Below are positions 3,201 to 31,150 of a stretch of DNA of 64,000 nucleotides, piece after piece (within the stretch, counting starts at the first letter, position 1; each line of letters begins with the position of its first letter). The stretch is from Microbotryum violaceum (Eukaryota), in NCBI GenBank assembly GCA_001244265.2, contig CDLV01000005.1:124001-188000 (forward strand). The letters run 5' to 3'. A program made the translations under genes and the position numbers. The notes below the pieces were generated by a model that was not told the origin of the DNA, did no database searches, and saw only the letters and a list, made by a program, of their open reading frames with translations.

Positions 3201-3290
3201 ACAGAGATATCGAACCGACAAGGCCTTGGATGTGAGTGACTTTGTTGGCTCTACACCTAATCATCGGATCACTGATGTCTTCCTCGCAGA

Positions 3291-3781
3291 TTCTCACAGA
3301 AAAGAACTAGTCGACAAGAGTTTCGACACTGCCTCTCATAGCGTCGGCAATCGTCTTGTGGGAATCGTACCGAAAACACAATATCGTCGATCAAGTCCTT
3401 CAGAAGCGGTCGAATGAAAAGATAAGGGAAAAGGAGCGACTAAGAGAAATCAGTCAAAAGGAGCTCTTAGTCGCTCCTTTTCCCTTATCTTTTCATTCGA
3501 CCGCTTTGCTCTACCATAGGACGTAGAAGAGGTAGGCCAGACAGGCGGAATAAACCAGGTATTCGATGGTGGCGAAGCCGACAAGAAACATTTGAAATGG
3601 TGCCGGCATCGTCGTTTGAGGAATCTGAAGGACTTGATCGACGATATTGTGTTTTCGGTACGATTCCCACAAGACGATTGCCGTAAGACGATTGCCGCAA
3701 GACGATTGCCTCAAGACGATTGCCGGCGCCATGAGAAAGTTAATGTCGAAACTCTTGTCGACTAGTTCTTCTCTATGAGAA
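3291..3781. mobile_element. Nested inverted-repeat (foldback/MITE-like) element
   Basis: Outer arms 3291-3403 / 3624-3781 (right arm expanded by 4x ~13-bp AAGACGATTGCC repeats). Inner perfect 43-bp arms 3404-3446 / 3464-3506 with a 17-nt loop. Confidence 0.75.
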
Positions 3782-3784
3782 CAT

Positions 3785-6700
3785 GCGAGTGAAAGTCAAA
3801 CCCCTGCGGCCCTGCGCGCACAGAGCGCTGCGCAGATCAAAACCCGCCGAGCACCTAACGCGGACTCCAGCGGGCGGTGAGTACTGCTGCCGCTTCACGT
3901 CCCAAGAGCGGGAGCAAAGATACTCGAAAACCAGGCAAGAGCGCCTAGAGAAAGAAGGGGGAGAGTATACAGAAAGTCACAACTGGGGATACGGAGAACC
4001 AGGAATACTAAGACAGAGGAGGGGAACACACCCGAGGGGCCAAGGGAGGGGGTCGAAGCCGGAGGTAGAGGTCCCCAGGGACTAACAGGCCGCAGCCAAG
4101 CCCCAGCTACTCGTCACCCCGACAGCGCCTGATGTCCTCCCTTGGCTGAATCTCGAGTGCTGGCTGTTGAGCCGTCGGGGCCGAGAGAAAAGCGATCCAG
4201 TACAACGAAACGAGCCTCGCCTTGACGCGAGGATATTGACCAGAAACGAGCGACCTTCCTTCCCGAGCCATGCCGTAGATCTTGACCGACGCGAACGAAC
4301 GAACCATTCAACGGAATCCAACACACGGCTTAGGAGTAAAAGGAGAAGTGGCTGAAGCGTAGTCAACAACCGAGCAACAGGAACGAGAAGAGGAAGGGAA
4401 GGGAAAAAAGGGGGGAAAGGAGAGGGAAAAACTTCACAAAGCCTCCAACGCAAAGACAATCGACCTGGCTTGCCGATCCATCCAAGAACAAAAAACCGCT
4501 ACTGCGCAAAGTAGAGAGAGAGAGGGAGAGGTGCGCAGCCTTCCACTGCGCAACAAGTTCCAAGACAGTCAGCTTCTAAAAGAGGAGTCGACCTCCGAAA
4601 AAGAAAGGAGGAAAGGAGGGGAGGAAAATGGGAAGGAAGGACTTAACTCGGTCATCACACCTCCCAATCTCGAGCCCCAGGCACAAAACCCGCTCGAGAG
4701 AGAAAATCTCGCTCGAACGCTCTGAGTGCACTGGGGAGCGAGGGAGGGGCCACGACCTTGTCCAGCTCGAACCGCTGATGAACGCGCCAGCGGAGCAGGT
4801 GCAGCCGCTGGAAGCCGATCGCGCAGGCCAGCCGAACCCACATCCATCTCGAGGTCGTTCTCCCACGACCCCGCAAAAGGGGGAGCCCCATAGTCAGCTG
4901 CTCCGGAGTGAACGTCGACGGATCGACGTCGGTATCCTCGATGCCCAGCTTGTCGAACAGAATGCGAAGCACCCCACCCCAGAAGCTGGTCGAGTACGCG
5001 CACTCGAAGAAGTAGTGCGACACCGTCTCGATGACCGCTGCATCGTTGCCGCAGAACAGACACGTCGGCGAAGAGGCATGACCCTGAGTATGCTGCCTCT
5101 TGCGCGTCGGCGTCACGTCGTACATGAGCCGCCAGTGGGTGTCCTGCTCCACAGCAGACGCAAACCGGTCATGAAGCCATCTCCAGAAGCGCTTCCTATC
5201 GCTCTGAGAAGTCCCATCACGGAAACGCTTGACACGATCCTCCCTCCCTGGGAACCGAACCACGTTCACAAGCCGACGAAGCTTGCGAATAGTGAACGGT
5301 CGGGTGAGCCCAAAGAAGTTGAAGCACCGAGGACGGGGAGCCTCCTTGAGAGGTATCCGAGCAGGTCGCAACGCGGTCTTGGGCAGCAAGGCTTTCGCCT
5401 TGAGCAACTGACCCACGCGCGACCACACGTGCTCGTGCTGTAGGGCGGGTTCCTTAGAGTGCTGCCAGAACCCGCGTCGATGACCAACCAGAGCCCAGCC
5501 CTTCCCTTCGTCCCTCCAGTACAGGTCCGCGATCTGCGCAAACTTCGCCACTGCGTCCGCATCGTCATATGCGTGCTTGGCACCTTCAGCATAGAGTGAA
5601 GGGAGGCGAGGCGGAAGCGAGAGCAATTCGGGGAGCGTAAGGAGTTCGGACTTGATGGTTGGAACTGTGACCCTGGCCGCTGCAACGACTGCCCCCCAGC
5701 GCGTCGAGTCGCGATACAGCTTCTCGACCCGAGCCGTGCTGCTGAAGAACCCCCACGGACTGAAATCGCGGGTCGCAGCGACGAGGGACCTCCAGCTCTC
5801 GCGAGCTAGGGGCGCCCAGATCGCCTCGTTCGAGCCCGCCACAGCATCCCAAAATCGAAGCGCCACCGAATGAACGATGTCGCCGATTGAAATCAAGCCC
5901 AAGCCACCGTCCTCCCGAGCCTGGAACACGAAATCGCGAGCGACGGTATTTCGCCCTGCTCCTCCCCAAACAAAATCCGTAAGTGCTGTCTCCGCCGCCT
6001 TAATGAACCATTGAGGCGGTATGTCGAAGGACAGCACGTGGAGGACCGTCGAGATGATATGAGCGTTGGCATAGAAGACCTTCCCACTCGGCGAAAGTGT
6101 CCGGTCTCCAGCGGCGCGGGTCTTGGCCTTGATCCTGTCAAGAACATGGGTCCAAAACAGTTTCGAGTCACCGTGGCGAAAGAAGGCATAGCCGCACCAC
6201 TTGAAGCTCTCCCCCTCCTGCACCGTTGGCAGCGCCTGCGCAGTCTCGTCCCGAAGCCAGTTCGGTCCGAGTGGTAGCACCAGCGTCTTGTCCGTGTTGG
6301 TCTTCCCGTTGGTTGCCTCGTACCACGTCTGCGACAGCGTTTCCAGCTTCGACAATGCCGCCGGTGACTCCACCACCACCACAGCATCGTCGGCAAACGC
6401 CAGATGCGTAAGCTGCGCACGCGGCCCCCCTGGCCACACCTTCTGCAGGTCGAGCGCGATCCCGCGCCGAACGAGGGCGTCGAGGAAGGGCTGGAACGTG
6501 ATGTTCCAAACCGGGCACGAGAAGGGATCCCCCTGACCGAGACCACACAGCAACCGCACCAACTCCGTGGGGAACCCATTGATGAGGTAGCGCACCCCCA
6601 GAGTCTCGGGATCGTACAGAGCGCGCAGCAGGGAAATGAAACGCTCACCAAAGCCAAAGGCCTCGAAGACGTCGAAGATCCATGCGTGATCGACCCGATC

Positions 6701-8567
6701 GTACGCGCTCTGCTGATCCAAGGACAAGAGGGCGCCCTCGGGAAAACTTCAGTGCCTAGCGACTTGAGTTTTTCGAGAAGGAGAGTGAGATGACTTCCCG
6801 CGTCTGCTGAACGTCTTGATGGCATGCACCCGTGTTGCGCCGGCGGCAAAAGCTCGCCGAGCACCCCATTGAGTCGCGCCACCAAGACCTTGCTGAGGAC
6901 CTTGTAGGTCGTCTCGCGCAGTGTGATCGGTCGATATGCCCCAGTGATTTCAGATTGGCCCCCGGTTTGTTCTTGGGCAAAAGCCGCACCAGCCCCTCTG
7001 CCAAGGACGCCGTCATTTTACCCCCTCCCAAATCGAGTTGAACAAATCCAACAGCTTGGGAGCAAAGTAGGTTGGCAGCGCCTTGAAGAGCTCGTACGGA
7101 ATGCCCGAGGGCCCCGGTGATCGCCCCGAATCCGTCTTCTTCAACGCCGCTTCAACCTCGAGGAGGGTGAAGGGCTCGTCAAGCGCCACTCTCGCTTGAC
7201 GAGGCAGCCGACGACCGAACGTAGGGTCCGAGCGGTCGTCATCGTAGCATTTCGCCGCGCGAATAGGGTCGAGCAGGGACCGACGTGGGTTCGTCGGGTC
7301 GCCACGAGCTGGGTCCGGCGTGAAGAGCGACTGTGCGTGCCGTGAAGCAATGCCCAGCGCCTCCTGCATGTCAACGGTCTCGGTGCCATCCACATCCTCC
7401 AGCGAGACGATGCTCGTCTGGCGACTCCGGCGGTTGAGACGCGTGCGAATGCTTGCCGATTGACCTTCCCTCGAGTCGACTGACGGCACATGCGCACGAA
7501 TGCGCAGCCACTGAGCCTCCTTTACCGCCAACTGGTCCAACCGCGACTTGGCAAAAGCATACGCATCGCGCTCGGCCTCATTCATGTGCTCACCGCGTGC
7601 CTCCAAAGCCTCCATGACGGATTGGCTCTCGGACCGCAGTCGGCGCATGTCGGCACGAGTCGAGCGGTATCGTGCATGGCCAGCGACTGCAACCGCCCGC
7701 AGAGCGGCGTCATAGACGTCGCCGAGCGGAGCGGTCCCCTCGAGCCTTCGATAGACCTCGTCGACGACCCCGGGAATCGATGCGACAAAGTCTTGATCGT
7801 CAAAGACCGTTGGGTTGAGCCTCGAAATGAGATCGCTCGTAGAGGGAAGAGAAAGGGGGGGTTCGGCATCAGCGTTCGACGTAGGCAATGCGAAAGTCGC
7901 AACTACAGGTCTGTGGTCCGAACAGGGCGCGTCGAAGAGCGTAGAAGCGCTCAACAACCGGTTTACCCAACTGCATTGGTCAAGAATATAGTCGATCCGC
8001 GACCACGAGCAAATCTTTCGCTCCTCCCCTCTACCACGGTAGTGAGGACGAGTGAATGCGGGGGTGCAAGAATGGACATGTCGGACCGTGTCGAGTGCCT
8101 TGAACGCGATCTTTGACAGCAAAGTCTGCCAGTGCGATACAGGAGTCCAAGCGCGATCGGTGATGGACACTCGGTCGATCGATACATCCGGACAATCATT
8201 GAGATCGCCGGCCAAGATCCGAAGAGTCTTGGGTCTCGGGGCGTTGAAATGCAGGAGCCCGAAAAAGTCGCGACGATCGTCCTCCTGTACCGGCGCGTAC
8301 ATGTTGATGATCTCAACATCGAGCTCCTCAAGACGAAACACCGAGCGCAGAATCCGACCGTCGAGACGAGGAGCTCCTGCAAAGACGACCGGGGTAGAGG
8401 AAAGGAGATGGCCCGCCAAAGGTGAGCCATCGGGTATGAGGGTAAGGACATGAGGAGTGAAACGAATACAAGCCCCTGGCCAAGCACTCTCGAAGCCTTC
8501 GCGCGACGCGTTGTAGCTGAGGTGGTGCTCTTGCAGGAGAATGGCCGCAGGGGCCGGCCCCCTCGGA
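3785..8567 (-). mobile_element. Non-LTR retrotransposon, L1/Tx1-like (element E3): slightly 5'-truncated ORF2 plus 3' UTR
   Basis: APE endonuclease motifs (LLQEHH, INMYAP, AGDLND, SRIDYI, SDHRPV). RT motifs (SPGPSGIP, YRPITL, LDQQSAYDRVDH, GLGQGDPFSC, AFADD). C-terminal zinc finger CLFC...HYFFEC. The 3' end is not clearly defined. Confidence 0.92.
4655..8567 (-). CDS. ORF2 polyprotein (APE-RT-zf-RVT, ~1300 aa) with three -1 frameshifts at ~7022, ~6940 and ~6741
   Basis: ORFs 7013-8605, 6756-7031, 5893-6885 and 4655-6727 join into one continuous protein if one base is added to each of three G/C runs. Confidence 0.85.
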
Positions 8568-9917
8568 TTTTTTTTGTATGCATTTTTTTTTTGTATGAAA
8601 CTCATCGCTAATTTGCAAGACGAGAAACCCCCCTACGGAACTAAAGGAGATGCTACCCAGTATGCACGATGATGACCACAACCGCCGCTTGATGCGTTGT
8701 AACTAGCAGAACAGACCAACCCGATACATCCGAGTTCAAGTCCCCCCACCCACGGTTGCTCCCTCCCAGAGACGAATGAAAGGAAGGTTGAAGATAATAC
8801 ACGGGGAATCTGGAAACGATGGAAGAAATGTTGGTGGTGGTACATGTGTTGTACAGGTGAATCCGATCATAATTGTACAGTTGAACCTTCTTCGATCTTT
8901 TGACTTCAGACCCCCCTGAGACTGCCATACTCCTTGAGGCCCTTAATTCTTTGAGACGCGTCGAACAAGGCCTCCGATGGCACAAACATCCCGCTCAATC
9001 CGAATGATTCACGTGGTCCAAAAGGGGGAATGTAACCCCTGCGACCGCAGCAATCACATACCCCTTGTACCCGTCTGCGCTGGATCTCCACCGCGGAGTC
9101 CAACCCCCTTTTCGGTTACCAAAGTCTGCCCCCCCTCGCGACCGCACGACCCCAGATCACCCCCATTTCAATGACTGCAACTGCGAAACAGGCCTACTTC
9201 GCACAAAAACACACAATCCAGAGATTTCCGGGGAAAGTCACGGAGCATGTGACAGTCCATTGGACACGCCTCGGTCGGGTGCAGCGCGGGCGGGTGGCCG
9301 TCAACACCGGCGCGCAGCTGGAGACAAGAGGCGGGGTATACCTTCCGCAGGGGCCTCGCTTCCCTGCGGCGTACTCCCAATCTCGGAACGCACACTCGAG
9401 TCCCGTTGTACGTGCAGGTGGTTCCCAATCACCGCAGATACTGGGGAAAGAAGGAGCATGAGGCCCACGACGGTGATGTCATTGGGTGGGACCTCGCTCG
9501 AGTGTGGATGTGTATGGCGGTTCGGTACCCGAGTCACCCGCCGCGCGGCCGCGACTCCGAGCGAGCAGCAAAGCAAGGAGAGGCGAGCCACGCAGGCAGT
9601 TTGTGCCGGCCTTGAACAGGAGATCACGGAGTCGCTCGACCGAAAGAGAAAACAGACCCGGCCCTTGAGGGGAGTGGAAAAACTCACGGCGTAGTCCAGG
9701 AGAGGGCCGAGGGGATCCGCTTTCGCTGTGTGTCATCGTGATGTGGCAGAAGCTCGAACCAAGGGCGACGATGCTCCCCGGCGCAAAGAACTCGAGGCTC
9801 CTGGGGAGTACGGAAGCCTATGATGAGGAATGGCAAAAAGAGCGAGAGAAAACAGGTTCAGTATGCTGGCGTTTTTGGGAGACAGTGGAGATTGAGAAAG
9901 AGGGAAAGGGGACTTGT

Positions 9918-9952
<35 letters not shown>

Positions 9953-11210
9953 GTTTTGGTTTGGGTAGGGAGGGAGCGCCGTCTACTTCATCGTGCCAGT
10001 CTGAGCTCCAACCTCTCCTTCAGTCCGGCCATCTCCTTGTCCATGCTCGACATCGCTCTGGCGTGGCGATGGAGATGCCAGCGTCGGTTGCTGAGAGTGT
10101 CAAGCGCCAGCGCAATGAAGGCGCGGGTTGGGCGCTTTTTCGAAGCCGGAAGGCGAGCGCGCAGTCGAGGGAGGCCGTGCTCGATCTGAAGTGCCGTGTA
10201 GTCGAGGTCGAGGATCGACACGACCCCCAGCGCGTCGCAGAGAATGGACCTAGCTGCTTGCCAAAACTGAGAAGAGTCAGGGCAATCATGCCAAAAGTGA
10301 GTAAAGTCATCCTCCACCCCTGCCAGGCTGCATGCCTGCACAAGGCAGCAGGCTGAGTCGCCATGCCGCTGCACAAACTGGCGCTTCCGCGTTGACGTGA
10401 AGTGGTACGCCAGCTTGAAGTGCACCTCGCGCTCGCGGGCCGTGGCGGGCCCGGTGTTGAACCACCCCCAGAAGAGTCGCCTTTCTTTGGGTGTGGCGAG
10501 TGATCCAGGGCGTTGTGTGTCGTCGAAACGTCGATGGTTGATGACGCGTCGAAGTCGCGCAATGGTGTAAGGTCTGTCCAAGCTCAACATTCTCCACTGA
10601 TCAGCACGCAAGGGGGCGGAGGGGAGGGAAAGTTTTTGATCAGGCATGCCGACCGGAGTCGCTCTGGGCAAGATATGCTCGAGGGGACCACCGGGCCGGA
10701 CTCCAGGTGCTCCAACAACACGAATGACGGGTGGTCGACGTGCGAGGACGGGAACAGGAGGCGGAAGCGGCGGGATGAAGCGATCGCCTGCGACCTGGAT
10801 CCACGCCTGGACTTGATCGCGCTTCCATTGCCACAGGTTGGACAGCTCCGAGCCGTCGCCTTGGGGATGCTTCTCAGGGGTCCAGGGCACCGTTGGAGCT
10901 GCGGGGTATTGGGCTCGCGCATAGATGTCAGCGATGGTGCGTTCGAAACTGAAAAGCTTCGCCAAACGCTTATCCTGCTCCGAGAACACCCGCGAGTCAT
11001 GCAGACCAGGTTGGAGGGGAGAAAGAGAGAGAAAATTGGAGACCGAAAGTTTGGCAGGATCGACGACGGCAGGGTAGCGTTCAGCGACCGAGAGCACCGC
11101 TCGCCAGCGGGGATGTAGCTCCCGGGGTGCGTCGGCGTTCCTCCACGTCCACAGATCCGTAGCAAAGTCAAAGGTTGGAAGCGCTCGCCGGATGGAACTC
11201 CGAGCCAGCT
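8568..11210 (-). mobile_element. 5'-truncated L1/Tx1-like element (E2): ORF2 C-terminus 9988-~11210, poly(A) at ~9918-9951, further presumed 3' UTR, A-rich tail 8568-8595
   Basis: ORF 9988-11097 aligns by eye to the E3 C-terminus (PYTIARLRR~PFTIRKLRR; FWGWF..TAREREVHFKL..TSTRKRQ; C..C..HFWHDC). 9917-8568 could instead be a separate UTR-only insertion. Confidence 0.82.
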
Positions 11211-12438
11211 AAGATGTTTTTTTTTTTTTTGTATGTTTTTTTTTTTAAGATGTTTTTTTTTTTTTTTTTTTGTAAGATTTTTTTTTGTAGAAAACGTTCA
11301 TCATATTGCCCCAGTTCCTGTTCCCCCTGTTTTGGCCTACGGAAAAACTAGATGGAAGACTACGATGATAACACAAACCGCCCGCAAAAGTGCGAGAAAC
11401 GAGCCAAGTCCACCAATCCGAGATTCGGATTCAAATGCCCTAGCCAAGCGGTTGCTCCCCCCCGGAGACTAATGAGAGAGAAAAAGAGAGATGAAGAGAA
11501 AAAGAAAGAAAAGAAATGTACTAACGACAGAAGGCCCACCCCACAGCCACTTCCCACTCGGTCGAGACGAAGACAAGAGCACGACTGCGCAACCACCACG
11601 ACCCTCGACGCTCCAAGTCTCTGCTCAGTCACAACAAGACGCGGTGAAGGTCCCTCAAAACCTCCCCCATCGGCAGTCCCTGGCCCCTCAAAGCCGACTT
11701 TCTGCCTGTGTCCGCTGATCCCTCCCTTGACTCAGAACCCCGAAGCCGAAGAGCGCGAGCCACACCGAGTCGACGCCAAATCGCGAGATGGTCCATGATC
11801 CGCAACGATGAACCTGTAACAAATGAAAGATGAAAGCGATCTATTTAGTGTACAGTAGGAGAAAATGATGTCACGAGAATTTGGTGTGTGTGTGTGTGTA
11901 GTGGTGGTGGGGGGAAAGTCGAACCCAGCCTCTACTGCCCTCTCCTCCCCCAAGCTCCTCCCGCCCTCAGCTTCAACCTCTCCTCCAAGATGATCCTCCT
12001 CCTCCCAACACCCTCCATCCTCGTCCCCCACTTCTGCATCCCCCACCTCCCGCTGCTGATCATCTCCAAGACCAGCCCGGTGAATATTTCGATCGTCCTC
12101 CCCGCTCCTTCTTGATCGCGTAGACTGGCCTTGAGCTTCGGAAGTCCGAACATGCGTTGAACAGCCGTGTAATGCGTGTTGTCGATCGTGTCGAGCCCCA
12201 GTGCGTCGCAGAGCACGCTCCTTGCCGCTATCCAAACGTTCCCAGAGTCAACGCAGTCGAAAAAGTAGTGGTCGGTGTCGTCCACCGGCGCTTCGCAGAC
12301 GAGGCACGCGGAGAAGTGTCGTGATTCTGTTGGTGTTGCAGCTTGCGCGTCGGGGTGAAGCGGAGAATCAGCTTGAACCAAACTTCCCTCTCCCTCGCCG
12401 TCAGTGCCTTCGAGTTGACCGCCTTTTTTTCCGCCTTC
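11211..12438 (-). mobile_element. Heavily 5'-truncated L1/Tx1-like element (E1): zf-RVT C-terminus, 3' UTR, composite A-rich tail 11213-11288
   Basis: Minus strand 12425-12315 reads KAVNSKALTAREREVWFKLILRFTPTRKLQHQQNH, then after a -1 shift CLVCEAPVDDTDHYFFDC...WIAARSVLCDALG (stop at 11932). Tail is (A)n interspersed with TCTTAC/CATCTT/CATAC. Confidence 0.82.
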
Positions 12439-12497
12439 CGTAAAAATGGTGGTACTTAAATTATATTCTGCATAATCGTATGAGGCCTCGTATGAGA

Positions 12498-12581
12498 GGG
12501 GGTATAGATCAGTGGTAGATCGCTCGCTTTGCATCATTAAGTACTTGCGAGAGGTCCAGGGTTCAAGCCCCTGTGTCTCCA
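12498..12581 (+). tRNA. tRNA-Ala(TGC) with ~12-nt intron (about 12534-12545)
   Basis: GGGGGTATAGATCAGTGGTAGATCG-CTCGC-TT-TGC-A[intron]T-GCGAG-AGGTC-CAGGG-TTCAAGC-CCCTG-TGTCTCCA. G3:U70 Ala identity pair, A/B boxes, TTTTT terminator at 12586-12590, AT-rich box ~35-40 bp upstream. Confidence 0.9.
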
Positions 12582-13256
12582 TAAATTTTTGTCGTCTCAC
12601 GTGTTGGGGAAGCTCTTTCTTTCTCATTCTCGTATCAAGTAAGGAGTGCGCGGTGCTTTGCATCGACCCGGATTCGCTGCCCCGGCCTTCACATCCTTTT
12701 TGGGACTATTTTGCACCACGCGCGTTCGACTGAAGCAACCAGCCTCCTTATTTGTATAGTACGGTGCTGTCCGTCAAAGCCAGCTACGGGCGCACTCCCT
12801 GTTCAAAGTTGACCCGCCGTCATTCCCCTGGGTAAGTATTAAATGTCTCGCTGACGTCTCGGATGTTTTGCTCCTGAAAATAATCAACCTTGGGCCGGAT
12901 TCGAGCTGCAACATAATCCACGGCGCGTCCCACTCGGGAAAGTCATATCCGGATCGTGGTGAAAACGCTTCGGCGGGGCGCCTGTCTTCCCCTTCGGACA
13001 CCGGTTGCCTGTCCCCACGACGTTGGCAAGCGCCGAACTTGGTGTTGCATAACTACTCATGCCGATATTTTACCTTCTTTCACCCATCTCCTCGCTTCGC
13101 ACATACCTCGCAGTATAGCCCGTCGCCTTCTCTCTGCATCCGCCACGCTTTCGCCGATGATTTGGCCGAGCCCACCCCCACATCAACCGGCCAACACTCC
13201 CGGCCGCGCCAGCTGGCTCATTTGAATCGCCCCGACCGAAGACATCACATCGGCAC

Positions 13257-16212
13257 ATGTCGCCTGCGAAGCCTGCTCACCTCAATGTGTTGATCATCGG
13301 AGCTGGTCCGGCAGGATGTGAACCATTTGCGTGGGTATGCGGAAACCTTCGTCCCACCAATGGCCTCGCGAATGAAGCCGAGCTGTTTCGTCCTCCTTGT
13401 TCGCCATTTCAGTGATGCTCGCGACTTGGCTCTCCAAGCTCAAAAACTCGACGCGCATCGTCGACAAGCGCAATACCAAAGCCTTCACGGGTCAAGCCGA
13501 TGAATTCCAATGCCGGTGGGTGACCTGAAGGAACCCTCTTGCTTGCGTATCAGACGAATCCTAACGAAGTTGCGCCACGACATCACCCTCGCAGTACGAT
13601 CGAGTTTTCCAGTCTGTCGGGTTCGCGAAGCGAATTGTCAAAGAGGGCACACACATCAACGAAGTGGTGAGGGAGAAGGCCTGCATAGATCCTCGATTGT
13701 CGACTATGCCTCCTTGTACTGAAGGTCTTGAGTCTTCAATTAGGTGTTCTGAAATCCCGACGGCTCGAACGGGATCGTCCGAACTAAACGAACTCCTGGC
13801 AATGCACCCGGAACATCCCGCTTCCCACATGCGGTCTTGACTCAAGGTCGAATCGAGAGGTTCATGCTCGATGTCATGAAAGACTTCGGTAAGATGCGTT
13901 GTTGTATTCTGCGCCTAAGTAACTCGGTCGAGCTTGTTGCTGAGCCCAGATATGTCGCAGAAATGTTCTCAAGTGGAGACTGATGATGACCACGACTCAG
14001 TCCAATGAACAGGGACGAGAACAGAGTGGCCAGAGACTAAGAGACAGACTCGTGGAAGGCTAGAAAGTGAAGCGTAAAGCTAATAAGGAAAGAGAATAGA
14101 GACTGGTAAAGTAGGGAGATTGAGTGACTAAGGAGTGAATGACACGCCGCTAGGCTCAATCCCAAGTACCATAATAGGAACGATAATCAGATGAAGGACG
14201 GAACAACCCATATGACCATATACAAATGACAAGATAGACCTGTCAATTCTCAGACGGTTTGGAAGTCGAAAGGTCTCGTCTGCCCATGTCGATGCAAGTC
14301 GACGAATCGCTCCTCAGCGACCCCCACGCTCATGCACGCTGATAGTGCGGTACGTCCTGTTGGATCTACCTTGGGACCCATGTCAACCGTCACTCACCTT
14401 GTGAAAGGCACGAGATTGCTCTCGAGCCTCACTGGTTACGAGTCCAGACTGAAAGGATCAAAAGGTGTAATTCGCAGGCGAAGAAAGACTACTCAAAGGA
14501 CTAAGGTCAAGAGACGCGGCGGCGCCGCGCGCGAGGGCAAGCGTGAGGCCGCAGAGGTTGGCATGAGGTCGTCGTGAGGCGTAAGCGGAGCGGCGACTTA
14601 CACCTTGCTGCTTAGTCGGACAGGGAGCTACGTGAGGCGTGCTCGATGCCACCGTTATGACGTGAGTATTTCCGCAAGTGATCTTCCTCTTTTTTCTAGT
14701 GCTGAGTAACCTCCCTTCTCGCGCTGTTCTGTAGTGATTTTCCCGACATGTGAGCAATGTTCCGAAGGTTCGTCTAACTTGGACGGTCGCACTGATCCTC
14801 CAAGTCCGGCAAATCGACCGACAGTCGACTGAAATGTACTCTTCACTCCAAGGATTAAGGCTCCACACTAATCGTCTCGTGCGCTTCTACGTCCAACTCG
14901 GTTCGATCAACCCCGGAGAGCCTTACGACCGCGACTCGGTAACGCCGGCGTCGATCCTCGCCAAGGCGTAGGCGATCATGCACCCTTACAAGCTCGAGAC
15001 ACCGTTCGTCGAATGGTACACACGTTATGAGAATGGGCAGAGGATCCGTAAGGACGTCACGAGGGAAGGAAGGGTCTTTATTGCTGGAGGTGGGTTGATG
15101 CGGATTTCGAGTGATCGCTTGTTCACCGACATCTATCGAATTTAACACCGAGGGACCCCCCACACCTATCTTCCCAATTCAGATGCCTTTCACACCCACT
15201 CGCCCAAAGCCGGTCAATCTCGGCATGAACGTGTCAATGGGTGACAGCTACAATCTAGGATGGAAGCTAGCTCACGTGCTCCAACGCAAGGCGGACCCCA
15301 GCCTCCTATCGGCCTACGCCTCGGAGCGGCACCAAACCGCTCAAGAGCTGATCGATCTCGACCACAAGCTATCGCGTCCGCACCTTCAACGGACGAAGGT
15401 GAACCAGATGGGGTCTCATTGAAAGAGTTCACGGCATTTGTAATCAAGATGGGCCACTGGGCATCGGGTACGGCAGTGCATTACAAGGAATCGATCGTTG
15501 TCGCCGCCGAAGCGACTATAAACCTCGTCGCTCCTGGTCTCCCGCTTGGCAAGCGGTTCGAATCTCACCAAGTCGTCTTGATGGCCGATGCCAGACCTTG
15601 GCATCTGGGCGATCGACTCGAGTCGGATGGAAAGTGGAGGATCATCCTTTTCGCAGGGGGCGTTCGGGATTTGACGCAAAGACAAAAATTGGACGAGGTC
15701 GAGGCTTACCTCGGTTCGGTCGTTCCTATACACCTCCGAATAACGACTTGGATTCCGTGCTTGAAATTCTGACCGTTATTTCGAACCCGGCGTGACGCAT
15801 GAACCGAATGACTTTCCGTGCGTATGATTTCCGCGTTCGGAAAGCCCCTCTCCGCACTGACAGACTCGACTTTCTCCCTCCGCGACCGTCGTAGCGACAT
15901 CCTCTGGCCCCAAAAGGGCGCGTTCGGTTCCCGTGACTATCTCAAGATCTTTTCCGACGATGAGAGTTGGTTCTCCGGCCATGGTCAGATTTATGAACGC
16001 CTTGGGATCGATAAGCAAAAAGGTTGTGTGGTGGTGGTACGACCTGATCTGAGACGGTTTCGTTGGTCGTGGGTTTGGACGAGGTGAAGAGGGTCGGTGA
16101 GTGCTGAGTGTCGAAGGTGATGAAAAACTAAATCTTGATTCTGACTATAATGTTCTTATTTGGTGTACTAGGGGAGTTCTTCGCCGGCTTCATGATGCCG
16201 GTTGTAGCGTGA
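13257..16212 (+). pseudogene. Phenol 2-monooxygenase (FAD-dependent) pseudogene
   Basis: VLIIGAGPAG, QGRIERFMLD, RVFIAG, HTHSPKAG, GMNVSMGDSYNLGWKLA, Y.SERHQTAQELIDLD, DGKWRIILFAG, GCVVVVRPD. In-frame stops (TAG ~14969 in AKA*AIMHPY; TGA ~14633 in YV*GVLD) and frameshifts. Confidence 0.85.
13953..14231. mobile_element. Solo LTR (279 bp) in an intron of the monooxygenase pseudogene
   Basis: TGTC...GACA termini; 5-bp TSD AGATA at 13948-13952 and 14232-14236. Confidence 0.9.
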
Positions 16213-18608: not shown

Positions 18609-21160
18609 CTACAATCTCGCGTCGACGGGGAGCGCGAGCTTCTCACGCAGATCCTCATCGATGAAGCGAGAGACCGAGTGCGACAAGGACAAGTTCGTGA
18701 TCATAGGGTTCACCGCCGAAGCCGTAGGGAAGATGGACGCGTCAGCGACGTAGAGCGAGTGCGTACCCCATACGCGCGCACGAGGATCGACGACCGAGTT
18801 CGTCGGCTTGGTCCCCATCTGGTTCGAGCCCATTTGGTGGGCGGACCCGACACCGCACAACGTCGGCTTGACACCGGCCTTTTTCACCTTGGCGATCCAG
18901 GCCTTCCAAGCAGGGTCGGAAAGACCCTTGTGGCCCGGCGCGGGGATGTAGTCCTCGACGAGGGACTGCGTCGTGAGGATGCGATTCGCTCCAGCAACGA
19001 GGTGCATCTCGGCCATGGCGATGATACCTCGTAACAGGCCTTGGGCGTCGTAAGGATCCAAGACGTAGTCGAACCGAGGCTTGTCCTGTTCGTCGAGGAA
19101 GATGCGGCCCGAACCTCGATCGCGGCAAATGGCGATGAGCGTCGACGACTTGCCGAACTGCACCAGGGCCTTCTTGTGCTCCGTCGATCCGGCCCAGGGT
19201 TGGAACGAAGCCGCACGACCACCGGGGAAGGATTGGATGACCTCGATCTTGACACCGTGATGTGTGCCATCCCAGTTCTCGTGCACAGTCGAGACGGCGG
19301 TCATGATCGCGCCGTCCCAAGGATTGATGTCCTCGTCGAAGAAACCGGTGACGTACGTCGTCGGGTGCAAGCGTAAGTTGCGGCCGATGCGAGGGTTCTT
19401 GAGGCCCGAACGCATCAACACGGCGGGAGAGTTGATCGATCCAGCCGAGACGACGACGGCTTGCTTGGCACGGATGACGGCAATCTGTCCCTTGGCGTCC
19501 TTGACGAGCGCACCAATGCAGTGGCGCCTCGTCGCGCTGGGGTAAAAGTCGTTCAAGTTCGAAACCGTCGGCGGCGGCGGGTTGCGGGTCGACGCGAAGA
19601 GCAGACGCTCGACGGTCGTCTCGACCATAAACTTGGCACCGTCCTGAGCCGCCGATTTGAGCCAGCAAACGGGACCGGACTGCTTCTCGCCGTAGATGCA
19701 GCCAAACCCGCAGGTACCGCACGGGTGAGCGGTGCCGCCGGTATTTTGCTGGGAATTGTGAAAGGGGCGGTTAAGTAAGCGTCCAAATTGCAACCCGGTT
19801 GAGCCAACTGTACTTACAGGAATGGTAGCACATGGGTATCCAAGCTTAAGCGAAGCGTCAACCATTAACGAATTGGGCTTGTTGTGCTTGAGGTGCTCCG
19901 CCGAGACACCCATCTTGTTGCAGACGTTCTCGACCGAGTCTGCAAAGTCGGACGAGAGGAAGTAGTCCAAGCCGTGCATCGATGCCCATTGCTCACGCAG
20001 ATAGTGTTGAGGTCGGAGCGATGCGGACCAGTTGACTGTTTCGATGCCAAACACATGCATTGGATCAGCCGCCACATCTTCCGTCTCGGGAGTTCCTTCG
20101 TGAGGGACTCACCAGTCGTTCCACCTCCGAAAGTAGATCCGGCAAGAACGTTCATCGCACCATCCTCGGTAGCAATCATACCTGCACCTTCATAAAGCTG
20201 CTCGAATCCATCCTTCGGCTTGCCCGACATGTCTTCAGGTCGGACATACAGGCCCTTCTCCACCACGAGGACCTTCCATCCCTTCTTGGCCAACTCGGAC
20301 GAGACGACGCCCCCACCCGCCCCGGAACCGACGACGAGGATATCGGTGTCGATGTACTGGTAGGGCACGCTGATATTCTCAAAGACGAAGGCATAATGAT
20401 TGCGCAGGCGGTTCTTGTCGGCGAACCGGTTGGCCTCGCCGAGCGCAGGGAAGCCGGTGGCGAGCGCGATTTGGTCAAAGTTGGTGTAGGCGACATACAG
20501 TGCGACCGCTTCATGTTGCAAAGTGAAGGTTAGATTTTTTTCTTCGCATACATGATAGACCACAGCTTGACCCGAGACTCACAGACAAATCCTCGGTACG
20601 CTTGGCGCATCAACGCGAGATTGGACGATCCCCAGTTTTTGAGAATCTGCTCGCGTTGCTCGACGGATAAATTGACGAAAAAGCCGGTGTGACCGGTCAA
20701 CACGAGTGTTCCGGCACGGGTCGAAAGTAGAGTCAAGACGAGGCCGATCGAATCGACATTGGTTTTGGAGAGCGAGATGGCAAATTGGTGAGCCAAGGCT
20801 GGAACGGCACCGGGTAACTGGTTGGCCAGCAGGGAAAGGTCCAAGCGCACGAAATGGGTTGCGCCGAATGCGTGGAGCGTCACGGAGCAGGCACATACAG
20901 CGGCAGCAAGGAAGACGAGACAGGGGGAGGAAACACAGTGTCAGTTCGGAACGCAGGAGACCACACCCAGCCATGGCACTTACAGCGCTGTACTTTGCTC
21001 GAGCGAGGAAGCGCACATGCTCCCGCTGCTCGCTCGTGAACGACTCGGGCGCGACCGACAGCAGTTCGTTCTCGTCGCATTCGTGGAAGATGGCATCGAC
21101 GATCGCAGACAGCACCTCCATCTGGTTCGCATTGTACGGCGTCGAGAGCTGGACCGACAT
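18609..21160 (-). CDS. Long-chain (fatty) alcohol oxidase, GMC oxidoreductase family
   Basis: DILVVGSGAGGGV, VLAGSTFGGGT, C..CGFGC, AGSINSPAVLMRSG, IGRNLRLHP, SAHQMGS, LYVADASIFPTASAVNPM. Confidence 0.9.
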
Positions 21161-22105
21161 ATTGTGAATGGAAGTGGCACTCGTAGGGGGGTGTTGAGTG
21201 GAGGCTAAGAAGGTGAGAGCGCCTTCGTGTGAGGTAACGAGATCAAGTGGGGTTGCGGCAAGCGGGGCGTGTGGCAACCTTCTGCGTCGGATCTGCGATC
21301 GAAGCGGGGCGAAGTGACTCCGCTCGACAATTCCGTCCGCCCCTAGCCATTTCGACAAGCTGTGGTTTTGACTTTTTCAAATTATGGGTTCAAAGTTTTC
21401 TTCTCTCACACCTTTTTTTTTTTCCGACCTCTATCAAATACACCCGCCAGCCAACCCGCATGCAGAGTTTCCGAAGGGCCTTGGCTGTCACCACCGGCGA
21501 GGAATCGGCGACCTCTGGAATCCGATCCGCGTGAGAGCGATTAGAGTCACCGGGCGTCGGAGCTTCCCACCACCGCCCAATCTTTAATTCGAGGACGTCG
21601 AAGGGTACTTGACGATCGAGAGCACTTGAGACCCCTGATAAAGGGGGGAGTGTGTTGGTCGGACGTTAGAACTACTCCGTCGTTCTAGACCAATGGGCGC
21701 TTGCACCTTTTCCCACCGAACGTGCACCGAGTTTGCAATTGGCGCCTAGCGACCGGCTTACTTCCCTTGACTCTAGTCGATCATTTTCTTCAGGAGCCTA
21801 GGTTAAGTGATCCGAATCCATTCGTCGGCCCGCGGAGAGTATGAAGACGTGTCACATGGACATCACAGTACATTGAACAAGTTCCTTCAGGGTGGTAGTC
21901 AAAGGAGAATCACACGCACCACACCCGTAAATGACGAGCATACAAAACCCTCGATCGTAATCGGGACGGAGGTGAACACATGGCAGGGGTATCGCAGAGT
22001 AGAGGGAGATCACAGCGTAAGGGACATATAAAAGTTCCGAGTAGTGTTCTTTGTTTGTAATCACTCATCATCATCGCTCAAGTCTTGGCGACTCTTGCGA
22101 AGCGA

Positions 22106-26890: not shown

Positions 26891-27482
26891 CTTAAGGCGC
26901 GTGGTGAGAGCCCATGAGAGAGCAGTGGACCTGGTGATGGCACTTGGGGGGGTTCTGAAATGGTCGCGATTCCGCTCCGAGGAAGTGATCGAAAGGAGCG
27001 AGAAGCTCCTGAGTCACGCGCAACGATGAGGCGAAGTTAAAAAGGAGAGCCGTCGCACAGACTCGGAGTCGGCCACGGATATGGCAGCCAGAGTGGAACT
27101 GCCAGCCACCAAAAAAAAAGGGGGGGCAAAACTGTGAACACTGCAGCCATGTCTCGATCTTTGAGACAGCAGGATCTCAACTCGGCCTGATTTCCCAAAT
27201 AAACTCAACTCAGCGGCATGATCTCCGGTCTGGACCCAGCCGGTGCGACCGACCGCCCACAGGAGAGAGCGGGACTGAGCGGGAACTGAGCGGGAACTGA
27301 GCGGGAACGCGCTGCGGTTGCCCCCTGGAACGTCATCGCGCGCACCGCCGGCTCTGTCTAACCACCACCAGCAACCCTCTGATGACGTGAACGGGGACAC
27401 AAGGGACTTGGCCTATTCGATCACTAGCCTCTGGGCCCGCTCCTCACCTGTAGTTGTGTTTGTCCGTGTGGATACACACGCC

Positions 27483-30400
27483 ATGGCCGCCGCGGGGTTA
27501 CCCACCGCAACAACAGCAACACCCGCTCCTCCTCGGCTGGTCGCGACTCGCTCCGACCTCGGTAATCGCGTCGCGCCCCAGCTGTCGTCCGAGTATGACA
27601 GGCGCCCTTCGCGATCCAGCAAGCCTTCGATCGGCGGTCAGAGTGTGGCTGCCTTACTCCGGTGAGTATCGCACTCCCCGCTGTGTGGTGTGCTCGACTA
27701 AACCAAGCTCGAGTCTGGCTGGTTCGCAGCGAGGCCAAGGCGTTGACGCTCGACTTGCGCACCGCCATCAAACGCAAAGACCCGTGGGATCGCGAGGTCG
27801 AGTTCCAGAGAGAGAGGTGCATTTCATTCCGTGCTCCGACGCGTCTCCCGGGGGCCATCAGGGCAGCTCGACTTGGAGCTGACATTCCAGTTCCTGACTC
27901 ATGCCCTGCTTGCCGCACCGCGCGCAGTGTTCGTAAAGCCTATTCGCGTGTCCTCTTCTCCAGCACGGTAGGAACGTCCTCGTCGATTGCTCTCTTGGCC
28001 GCGTCGTCATCGAACCCAGTCTCTGGACCGTCCAATGCCCTCGGCTCGACGACCTCGCTCGTTTCGCCCTCGGCCAGTCATTCGACTCGGTTACTCGAAG
28101 CTCTTAACTCGTTATGGCTCGAGACATCCCATTCCATCATCAAAGCCTATCGATCACGCATCTCGGCCATGGACAAGACCCTCGCCGAAGCGCCTCAGGC
28201 CCATCGCAAAGGCGGAGGAGGAGCAGCGCGTGGCGAACCCCCACCGCCGGGGCCGACCGCTCGTAGAAAGCTCGTCCATTCGTTTAGAACCTTCCTTGCC
28301 AAGGAGGAAGAGTACTTTACCACATTATTGGGTCGACTTGCCAGTGATCTCAGCCCGAATGATCTCGAAGGGTTCAACGCCCTCGGCGTTGTTGTCGAGC
28401 CGGTAGAGGTCGTGGAGGGCCTCCCCCCGACATCGGAAGAGGACAAGCGCCGAGCCAGATCAAAGGCCGTGCCACTCGTTCACAAGGCCCTCATCTGCTT
28501 CGGGGATTTAGCGCGGTACCGCGAGCTCTTCAACGAGCATTCGGGTCCGCAGGCCAAGGAGCGGGGCGGCCGGAGAGGTAACAAGAGTAAGGTTACCTCG
28601 GCCGGAGGTTCTGAGCGCAACAAGCCAAAGAACTATTCCCGTGCTTCAGCGTGTTACACCCAAGCAAGGCTACTGATACCAGAGAACGGTGAGTGCTTCG
28701 TTTGGCCATGGATTGAAACAATTCTAGTCCAATCAGCTGAACGATCTATCTCTTCCGACTTGCGCAGGCAATCCATCTAACCAACTCGCCGTAATATCCG
28801 GGTATACGCACGATACCCTTTCTTCCACCTACCACTATTTTCGCGCGCTCTCGGTGCGTATACCCTTCCCGACGGCGCGGATCAACCTCGAGTTGGCATT
28901 CAACAAGGCGGTCACACGATGGTTCGAACGGCCGAGTGGGAGGCGCGAGCCCACACCTGACTTTGTCACTGCTTTCATCGCGCTCCACGGTTTGCTCTTC
29001 ACCAAAACGAGGTGGGTCGAGCGATCTGGTAGAGCACAGCCGAGAACAAGGAGGCTGACTGCAAGGGGAGTGTCCGCCCGTAGACTATCGGACATCGCAC
29101 CACTCTCTTCAAAAGTCGAGAGTTCCTTCCAACAAGCCATCACATCGCTGGAGCTATCACCAGACACCATCATCAAAATCGTGGTGACCGGTTTATGCTC
29201 CTTGTGGGATGCGCGGGTACATCGATCGAGCAGCAACCCTCGGAAAACACCGTCGAAACGATCGGCCGAGGCTGGCTCGAACGCAAATTCTGCACCTTCC
29301 GTCAACATCAATCTCGAACCGCACATCCTCCTGCATGTCCTGTCCATGTATACAATTCTACTTCGGATTTGCACCAACGAGACGGCGGAAGCCTACCTCG
29401 CGGACACGACCAAGCAAGCACCCAAACCTGGCTTGAACCTTGCCCAGAACATCAGTGCCGTCGTCCGTCGGGCCCTCCCGGTCCTTCGTGTGCTTTCCAA
29501 ATGGTTGTCAGGCCAGCTTGACTATATTCATCGAGTTGAATCCCGCCTACGAGCGAAGGAGGTCAAGATCAATCGAGCCAAAGCCGCTGACAGCGCTACT
29601 CAGGCGTCCCAGGCCGACACGACCCAACGCAGCAGCTCGGTCAGCGATGGGCAACATGTCGAATCAAGCCAGGACCAGTCGATGGAAACGGACCATGTGA
29701 ATTCGAGGTCGCTCGAAGACGCCTTGACGGCGTTCTGGACCTCGTACGCCGATTTCGCGAACTCGTTCAAATTGGTGTTCCCTACCGAAGGCCTGCCTAG
29801 TCCAGCAGATGGTGGACTATGGTTGGAAGAGGATGTCGATCTACTCGGCTTTGCTCCGCTACGCAGCAGCATGAAGGACGTCAAAGGGACGGATCTGGCT
29901 GTTGAGGCGTCCAAAGTGGGGAAGGAGGTGCATCCCAACGAGGAGCACCTAATGCGCATTGCCGAGTTGCAGAGCGATGCGGCGCTGATCGTCGAATCCG
30001 AGGTAAGCTTAACTGATCGTTCGCACTCTTCTCTGCGCATAATACTGATGTTTTCGACCACACTTTCAAGATCTGCCCGGTGATCGTTGAATTGGGCGCT
30101 TACGTTCTGGCCCCGCCTAAGTCCTCCGCCGCCACGACGATAGAGGATGAAGTAGAGGAAGAGGACGAAGAGGACGAAGCCGCCCCCATACCTGCCTCGT
30201 CGCCAACGAAGGCATTGTCCAGAGGGGTGGATTCGCTTGATCTGTTCGAACAAGCGGATGAAGGATCCGAGCCGACCGAAGATGATCCCGTCGATTTGGC
30301 GATGAGGATCGCCGCTGCGGATCGACTGGAGATGCAGGACATCACGGACGAGGAAGACGATGACGAAGATGACGATGACGGGCACATCGTCTATCGCTCA

Positions 30401-31150
30401 AGACTGAACCTGGGCAACATCGGGACGGCGACACGAACACCCCCATCGGTGGGTATCTCACCTCGAATGGGCACGCCTGTTCCCAATTCCGCCGCGTCGT
30501 CAAAGCGAAATTCGATGGATCTGAGATCGCTCTGGGCTCGTCCACCGGGCGATTCTCCTGTTCCGGCAGCGCACCACGCTCTCCCACCACCACACCAAAG
30601 TTCACGGAGTTCGTTCGAAGCGTTGCCCAACATGACTCATCAAGGTGCCTCCTACGCACCTACGCAGTCACCTGTCGGAGGCGGATCGACCTCTTCGATC
30701 TGGGCTCCGACTTTGAATGAAAGTGGGCACTCTTCGCCTTCTTTGCTTCAGCGGCAAGGATCATTCGCCGCCCCTTCTCCTCTCGGTGCGCCTCCGGGAT
30801 TGGCTCAACCTCCGTCCGCGGCGCCGATAGGCTTGTTCGGCCCTGCTTCGCCTTTCCCGCCTCCTGGTGGCGTTCCCGTCGTCCCGAGGCACTCGAACTA
30901 CCATCCAGCCTCAAGCACTCCATACGATTCAGGCTCTTTCAATCCCTTACCCTATCATGCTCCACCCCTATTCCCTTACTCGAATACGACCTTCGGACCC
31001 GTCCCGACTGGGTCTCAATCAGACCTGTCGCCCTCGGCCTTCCCATTCATCAGCGGTGGCTTTGGTCTCCCACCTCCGAGTCAGGTTGGTTCTGGTAGTA
31101 GTGGCTGGCCCGATCACAGCGGTGCCTACTCTGGGAGCTTTGGATCTTGA
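27483..31150 (+). CDS. Est1/SMG6-SMG7/Ebs1-family protein (NMD or telomerase regulator)
   Basis: HKALICFGDLARYRE, ACYTQARLLIPENG|NPSNQLAVI, YHYFRALSVRIPFPTARINL, LEEDVDLLGFAPL; low-complexity C-terminus with no visible PIN domain. Confidence 0.85.

Follow-up and report, generated by a model that had tools for sequence, protein, structure and literature searches.

Results

The DNA analysed here, called the window throughout, is a stretch of 64,000 nucleotides (nt) from the basidiomycete Microbotryum violaceum (GenBank assembly GCA_001244265.2, contig CDLV01000005.1, positions 124,001 to 188,000 of the forward strand), in which positions are counted from the first letter. [quoted passage not shown] The first-pass annotation of this DNA had described a stack of three elements; its account of minus-strand LINE pieces arranged head-to-tail stood, while the number had to be raised to four, X (9917-8568) having been merged into E2. 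The features of the locus are as follows.

12587-12591: T5 terminator behind the tRNA-Ala gene
12498-12581, plus strand: tRNA-Ala(UGC) gene (Rfam RF00005, score 55 bits, gathering score 29)
12426-12497: AT-rich spacer of 72 bp between the 5' end of the tRNA and the head of E1
12425-11211, minus strand: E1, 5'-truncated L1-like element retaining the last ~165 codons of open reading frame (ORF) 2, zinc knuckle included
11932-11934, minus strand: stop codon of E1, with a 3' untranslated region (3'UTR) of ~630 nt behind it
11211-11303, minus strand: compound A-rich tail of E1, (A)9 tcttac (A)18 catctt (A)11 catac (A)14 catctt
11210-9918, minus strand: E2, 5'-truncated, of a second family
9917-8568, minus strand: X, a separate element behind the A33 tail of E2
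8560-8567, minus strand: tccgaggg, 8 nt between the tail of X and the head of E3
8559-3790, minus strand: E3, of a third family, with a nearly full ORF2 truncated at ~codon 32
3283-3789: palindromic foldback-like element of 507 bp, which abuts or interrupts the 3' end of E3

The tRNA gene is the sole tRNA of the window. ARAGORN, run in bacterial mode, placed it at the same coordinates as Rfam but labelled it Cys-gca. By eye, an anticodon loop reading TT-TGC-A is followed by a 12-nt intron after position 37, and the acceptor stem carries a G3:U70 pair; together with the T5 terminator these features identify the gene as tRNA-Ala(UGC), and it is apparently functional. The earlier recognition of a genuine tRNA-Ala(TGC) at 12498 was thereby upheld. 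A reading of the tRNA as part of a short interspersed nuclear element was rejected on two grounds: the tRNA runs antisense to the LINEs, and it forms a complete gene, intron and terminator included. In the spacer, a TATA-like ttaaattatatt lies at ~12456-12467, about -31 to -42 from the tRNA, and an A5 run (minus strand, 12426-12430) adjoins the head of E1. The 7-mer aaggcgg occurs on both sides of this A5 run (12419-12437, minus strand), one copy forming the start of E1 and the other lying in the tRNA-side flank, an arrangement for which a simple target-site duplication does not account.

Two of the heads were fixed to the base with contigs from four public runs, under three organism labels, aligned to the window. 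The head of E1 lies exactly at 12425, where summed contig depth falls from 4950 to 88, and past this point paralog contigs (runs X1, X13 and X22) continue with E1-family sequence; family sequence likewise continues beyond the head of E3 at 8559 in contigs of runs X6 and X13, and in both cases the continuation codes the next residues of the respective family. With the tRNA beginning at 12498, the spacing is therefore 72 bp, a refinement of the ~60-75 bp given at first pass, and the nearest head does face the tRNA. All three internal junctions run tail-to-head with 0-8 nt in between: the tail of E1 meets the head of E2 at 11211/11208, the A33 of E2 ends at 9919 with X starting from 9917, and the tail of X meets the head of E3 at 8568/8559, so that the junctions proposed earlier at ~11211 and ~8568 are borne out. 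Contigs of other loci also show tail-to-head joints. The junction between the tRNA and E1 was bridged by no contig, the unique contigs ending at 12439 and 12442 with 33 and 45 unaligned letters, respectively, and no joint of unique depth skipping E1, E2, X or E3 was found in the contigs of the four runs, from which we draw no inference either way. Over the array, contigs add up to 20-170 times the depth seen on the unique flanks, and more in 3' than in 5' parts; these LINE families are abundant and show a gradient of 5' truncation.

All four copies are 5'-truncated and dead. E1 carries a 1-nt deletion in ORF2 at 12309, a G being present after this position in contigs of all four runs, and is 86-99% identical to Microbotryum gene models (designated here by P numbers). 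In E2 the C-terminal part of ORF2 is open over 406 codons (9991-11208, stop at 9988-9990); the 3'UTR behind it has ~35 nt, and the tail (9919-9951) is purely A33. Of the gene models, P0030 matches E2 at 97% identity and P0053 at 95%. No ORF2 similarity was found in X by tblastn. Over its final 215 nt, X matches the end of the E1 3'UTR at 65% identity (blastn, E 2e-13), its tail reads catac(A)10 tgcatac(A)8, a hairpin common to X and the E1 3'UTR is predicted from these two sequences, and its summed contig depth is as high as, or above, that of the autonomous parts; X may thus be a non-autonomous partner that uses the machinery of the E1 family through a common 3' end. E3 comprises an apurinic/apyrimidinic endonuclease (APE) part at 7013-8559, a reverse transcriptase (RT) and C-terminal domain at 4655-7017, a stop at 4655-4657 and a 3'UTR reaching to 3790; comparison with contigs revealed two 1-nt deletions, after 6739 and after 6938. 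Its N-terminus aligns to P0010 and P0039, and among the M. silenes-dioicae models P0001 matches it at 99% identity. E3 has no A-tail, and its 3' end abuts the palindromic element at 3789/3790. In the latter, inverted repeats are nested, with 100% complementarity across stretches of 60 nt and 43 nt; four tandem units of 14 bp (ACGATTGCCnnAAG) are also present, and contig depth is near single copy.

The nature of the pieces was established by domain and structure comparison. E3 has an RVT_1 match (E 5.8e-13) and a zf-RVT match, and E1 a weak zf-RVT match; the solved structure closest to the E3 RT is the RT of human L1 ORF2p (E 2.9e-11), with R2 behind it (1.2e-8). The APE ORF of E3 gave no direct sequence match in Pfam or the PDB. 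It aligns at 33-36% to P0036 and P0026, PF03372 is carried by the relatives P0036, P0095 and P0096, and the motifs NMYAP, GDLND and SDHRP were recognised by eye. On this evidence the pieces are APE-type L1-like non-LTR retrotransposons, as had been assigned from the start. A-rich tails were found on E1, E2 and X, and an ORF1-like part with a CCHC knuckle in the full-length relatives P0096 and P0099. A protein search assigned the window to Microbotryum: E3 has dozens of paralogues, spread over M. silenes-dioicae, M. saponariae and M. intermedium, and relatives at 33-35% identity in Sporobolomyces and Rhodotorula. The ORF2 C-termini of E1, E2 and E3, compared by tblastn, are merely 32-38% identical in pairs, by which tandem duplication of one element is rejected and the view that these were independent insertions by distinct families is confirmed.

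To look beyond this locus, annotated Microbotryum LINE gene models whose N-termini translate the DNA upstream of truncated heads were used as a proxy, and ~124 such models, drawn from two homology searches, one profile search and three cluster look-ups, were read. Thirty-three of them begin within the 3'UTR or A-rich tail of another element and then pass directly into a truncated head. The N-terminus MMNVFYKKK, for example, corresponds to the end of the E1 3'UTR and its tail, MSFIQKKN to the tail of X and MVRSFALVKIYGMAREG to the translated 3'UTR of E3; MSPSQKKKK is a further case. The head behind the tail may be of the same family or of another, families occur in both orders, and P0093 contains two stacked LINEs in one model. 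With so many models starting in a 3'UTR or tail, stacking is the rule, and head-to-tail arrangement is the normal state of these families. Many of the annotated 'proteins' (e.g. P0002, P0004, P0030, P0067, P0079, P0093 and P0094) are chimeras in which translated 3'UTR or poly(A), antisense tRNA, copia pol and truncated ORF2 are fused, and such stacked-LINE chimeras are an annotation artefact that inflates Microbotryum proteomes.

A second class of N-terminus, in five of the ~124 models, begins with antisense tRNA-like sequence: P0068 (BQ5605_C014g07657), P0072 (BQ5605_C008g05363), P0080 (BQ2448_3285), P0249 (Chr6-3g08958) and P0269 (BQ5605_C007g04847). The tRNA fits were made by back-translation by hand. 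The 5' end of the LINE is directed toward the tRNA in the window and in all five models, a count that is biased, as the search by eye was aimed mainly at antisense motifs. In P0068, from M. silenes-dioicae, residues 1-24 (coding nt 3-72) can be read as a 70-nt tRNA-Gly(GCC) in reverse complement, the anticodon being given by the fixed codon TGG and the C behind it. Each of the 21 stem pairs can form (acceptor 7, D 4, anticodon 5 including one G-U, T 5), and the codons allow U8, G9, A14, R15, G18-G19, A21, U33, A37, G53, T54, T55, C56, A58 and C61 together with an A discriminator. An E1-family head (ESILPHPI) follows 60 +/- 9 nt past tRNA position 1, in divergent orientation, if the model is free of introns there. 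Both the tRNA and the truncation point differ from those of the window (tRNA-Ala, head KAVNSK), and the two are therefore independent events. P0080, from M. intermedium, fits the T arm at 5/5 pairs, the anticodon arm at 4/5 with U33 and the D arm at 4/4 with A14 and U8. The heads of P0068 and P0072 are not preceded by a run of lysines (K-run), as a translated A-run would give. P0249 of M. saponariae and P0269 of M. silenes-dioicae have a common N-terminus, ...MINKRR(E/R)TAGPGVEPG, in which PGVEPG reads like a T arm with a perfect 5-bp stem, and behind this flank comes a head of the E1 family in one species, of the E3 family in the other; it may represent one orthologous tRNA or tRNA-like locus struck independently in two species by different families. 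P0239, with a GVRT motif, was set aside as too weak to count.

The ratio of tail-head to tRNA-head junctions among the models is about 6:1, as would be expected for arrays anchored at tRNA genes. For M. lychnidis-dioicae, the genome report (PMC4469406) gives a genome of 26 Mb with 134 nuclear tRNAs and 392 LINE copies, and by our own arithmetic on these figures only ~0.03 LINE heads would be expected by chance, genome-wide, in a 30-bp oriented interval upstream of a tRNA. Given two clean cases (the window and P0068) and four partial ones in a small and unfavourable sample, we consider it quite probable that the association between tRNA genes and these LINEs is real. A metagenome scan with a pattern from a six-sequence alignment gave 215 matches and two confirmed loci (L001 and L002), both 5'-truncated Sporobolomyces-like copies; in neither is there an A-run directly before the head.

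As a rough proxy for age we took the differences of each window copy from the high-depth contigs of its family.

E3: divergence ~0.3% (3/1078, 6/1698)
E1: divergence 0.3-0.9% (1/348, 4/450)
X: divergence 1.2-2.5%
E2: divergence 2.0-2.8% (34/1234)

Had each new insertion displaced the older ones away from the tRNA, as was proposed at first pass, E1 should be the youngest and E3 the oldest. That proposal is not supported, as the distal E3 has diverged by ~0.3% and the more proximal E2 by 2.0-2.8%. A mixed history fits, in which E1 came in at the tRNA side and E3 into the tail of X. As heads lie 0-8 nt from tails, priming on A/T tracts, of the kind known from Zorro3, would be an easier account than a protein ruler measuring from the tRNA; tail-directed insertion explains the growth of the stack at least as well as displacement, which is not supported as its sole mode.

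The rest of the 64-kb window gave no further LINE DNA or ORF2 match. The region of the tRNA and LINEs is bracketed by an inverted repeat (1-210 and 13950-14088, 94-100% identity) at least 140 bp long; its left arm, which has a 72-bp internal duplication, extends beyond the start of the window. The segment 13676-14500 is highly repeated (contig depth 2300-4250, against ~84) and is probably another family of transposable elements (TEs), and contigs of other loci join LINE heads (e.g. at 8205) to sequence from 14401. Further away are a GMC oxidoreductase gene on the minus strand (18609-20108) and, on the plus strand (27599-31150), a gene for an Est1/Ebs1-like telomerase-activating protein with EST1 and EST1_DNA_bind domains, in three ORFs split by introns.

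Discussion

That tRNA genes are targeted as safe havens is a textbook case of convergence, reached by LTR elements in yeasts and by LINEs in amoebae. In Microbotryum, the arrangement of the sequences makes a tRNA-upstream, orientation-specific preference likely. The explanation that we favour, with somewhat more confidence than doubt, is that the locus is an array of three to four related LINE families with a real preference for sites ~60-75 bp upstream of tRNA genes, their 5' ends toward the gene. As the likeliest mechanism, the elements would recognise the RNA polymerase III (Pol III) pre-initiation complex or else the AT-rich flank that it keeps free of nucleosomes. Once seeded, such an array would extend by further target-primed reverse transcription (TPRT), newcomers entering either at the site next to the tRNA or within the A-rich tails of copies already in place, and by both routes new heads would end up against old tails. 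This explanation proceeds from three observations: how the array is built, the recurrence of stacking at many loci and one further complete tRNA-LINE junction of like geometry.

Several observations weigh against it. The sole further complete tRNA is that of P0068, which depends on back-translation by hand, and a database search with residues 1-44 of this model matched P0068 alone. In P0080 an A-run stands in place of tRNA positions 1-7, the 5' acceptor strand, and leads into the head. The T arm fits in P0072, P0249 and P0269, and the rest of the cloverleaf failed by hand even with introns allowed; in P0269, moreover, the head lies directly behind the T arm, a geometry unlike that of the window. 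Spacings inferred from proteins are uncertain, since the gene models may be spliced. No tRNA was found by ARAGORN or Rfam upstream of the truncated heads at the two Sporobolomyces-like metagenome loci (3 kb at L001, 10 kb at L002). No target-site duplication is recognisable at the junctions of E1, E2, X or E3, the surroundings of the locus are rich in TEs, and the order of divergence, with the distal E3 among the least diverged copies and E2 the most, contradicts strictly proximal insertion.

The foremost alternative, which we nevertheless regard as unlikely, is insertion directed by A-tracts alone, in the manner of the L1-superfamily element Zorro3 of Candida albicans: T-rich DNA would be nicked and oligo(A) entered, above all in the tails of resident copies, and the tRNA would be incidental or would be hit by way of the A/T runs in its AT-rich flank. 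Zorro3 enters poly(A) and ends with poly(A) on both sides (PMC7175516). The tail-to-head joints agree well with such a process, be they the three within the window, those in contigs from other loci or those in 33 of the ~124 gene models, as do the A5 run adjoining the head of E1 and the low divergence of the distal E3. An A-tract mechanism predicts no tRNA neighbours, yet the window and P0068 agree in spacing (~60-72 bp) and orientation, and four more models are tRNA-like in part. The heads of P0068 and P0072 lack preceding K-runs, and no LINE is present at other homopolymers of the window, T11 at 21413 and A9 at 27111. The first-pass proposal of site-specific insertion at Pol III genes thus fares unevenly: the head facing the tRNA at about -72 and the tRNA-like flanks in 5 of ~124 models speak for it, and the 33 tail-head junctions fit insertion into A-tails equally.

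It appears improbable that survivorship produced the pattern, that is, that insertion was nearly random or merely AT-biased and that in a compact genome the only copies to persist were those in harmless sites such as tRNA flanks and other TEs. The genome is gene-dense, with a mean distance of 1.2 kb between coding sequences (PMC4469406), all four copies are truncated and dead, and the foldback element and other repeats occupy the same region, all of which would suit this explanation. Selection alone, however, gives neither a spacing of ~60-72 bp nor a single orientation, and does not account for the abutment of heads and tails within 0-8 nt; a targeting preference would explain these better than survivorship. 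We hold equally little for coincidence combined with duplication, by which the closeness of a tRNA to a patch rich in TEs is accidental and the tRNA-like N-termini elsewhere arose as chance motifs or by copying of a single duplicated segment: a complete tRNA is present in P0068 only, P0072, P0249 and P0269 fit the T arm only, P0244 and P0249 have one common flank and are neighbours on the same chromosome, the truncation points of E1, P0085 and P0084 fall within a few nt of one another and the finding was chosen post hoc from a large scan, yet the window and P0068 differ in tRNA and truncation point and are thus independent, the chance expectation derived from the genome figures is ~0.03 heads genome-wide, and the PGVEPG T arm has its perfect stem in two species.

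Returning to a preference for tRNA-upstream sites, we put forward, more tentatively, a wider possibility: a Microbotryum L1-like group may have evolved Pol III-directed integration (~60-75 bp, divergent) independently of the TRE5 elements of dictyostelids and, through re-insertion into tails, may have built multi-family arrays at many of the ~134 tRNA genes. If true, fungi would have their first non-LTR retrotransposons targeted to tRNA genes, and tRNA targeting a third independent origin, in a genus that is genetically tractable and well resequenced. It would then become possible to ask how TPRT elements read the Pol III complex and how TE arrays at tRNA genes arise, and whether such arrays affect tRNA expression or serve as recombination substrates in Microbotryum genome evolution. 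A 2018 review (PMC5911963) lists fungal tRNA-targeted elements that are all of the LTR type, with non-LTR examples from dictyostelids only. No description of LINEs associated with tRNAs, be it in Microbotryum, in Pucciniomycotina or elsewhere among fungi, was found in a literature search that covered subscription journals in part and had supplements outside its scope, in keeping with the first-pass view that none had been described in basidiomycetes.

Ty3, Ty1 and other fungal LTR retrotransposons land at the flanks of tRNA genes (PMC5911963). Unlike Ty1 and Ty3, in which an integrase is tethered to TFIIIB or Pol III, the elements described here are of the non-LTR type and would integrate by TPRT. 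Three groups hold most of the non-LTR families with specific targets, and Tx1 is one of them; the targets listed for such elements include tRNA genes (PMC4640811). Like Tx1-clade elements, those of Microbotryum are APE-type and have a C-terminal zinc knuckle, which is the sole hint of such kinship, and we file them simply as APE-type L1-like; whereas Tx1-clade elements use a fixed site inside a repeat or gene, the tRNA is left intact here and the insert keeps a roughly constant distance upstream of it. The likeness to Zorro3 lies in heads that abut A-rich tails, at the three internal junctions as in the 33 gene models, and in the A5 before E1. In contrast to Zorro3, which has no known chromosomal or tRNA preference, the target A-tracts here are mostly the tails of related elements, giving rise to arrays, and the tails are compound, with A-runs broken by tac, catac and catctt.

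The closest parallels are with the dictyostelid elements TRE5 and NLTR-B, which insert 40-54 bp and 39-64 bp upstream of tRNA genes, respectively, in opposite orientation (PMC5911963, Table 1). As in TRE5-A and NLTR-B, ORF2 combines APE, RT and zinc finger, an ORF1-like part is present, tails, where there are any, are of oligo(A) and 5' truncation is frequent. The spacings in Microbotryum, 72 bp in the window and ~60 bp in P0068, are somewhat larger. In TRE5-A the ORF1 protein binds TFIIIB (PMC5911963), whereas here there is ORF1-like sequence alone, and unlike TRE5-A the Microbotryum elements inhabit a basidiomycete and form long head-to-tail arrays of several families. Seen against these differences, the likeness of the Microbotryum LINEs to the TRE elements may be convergent.

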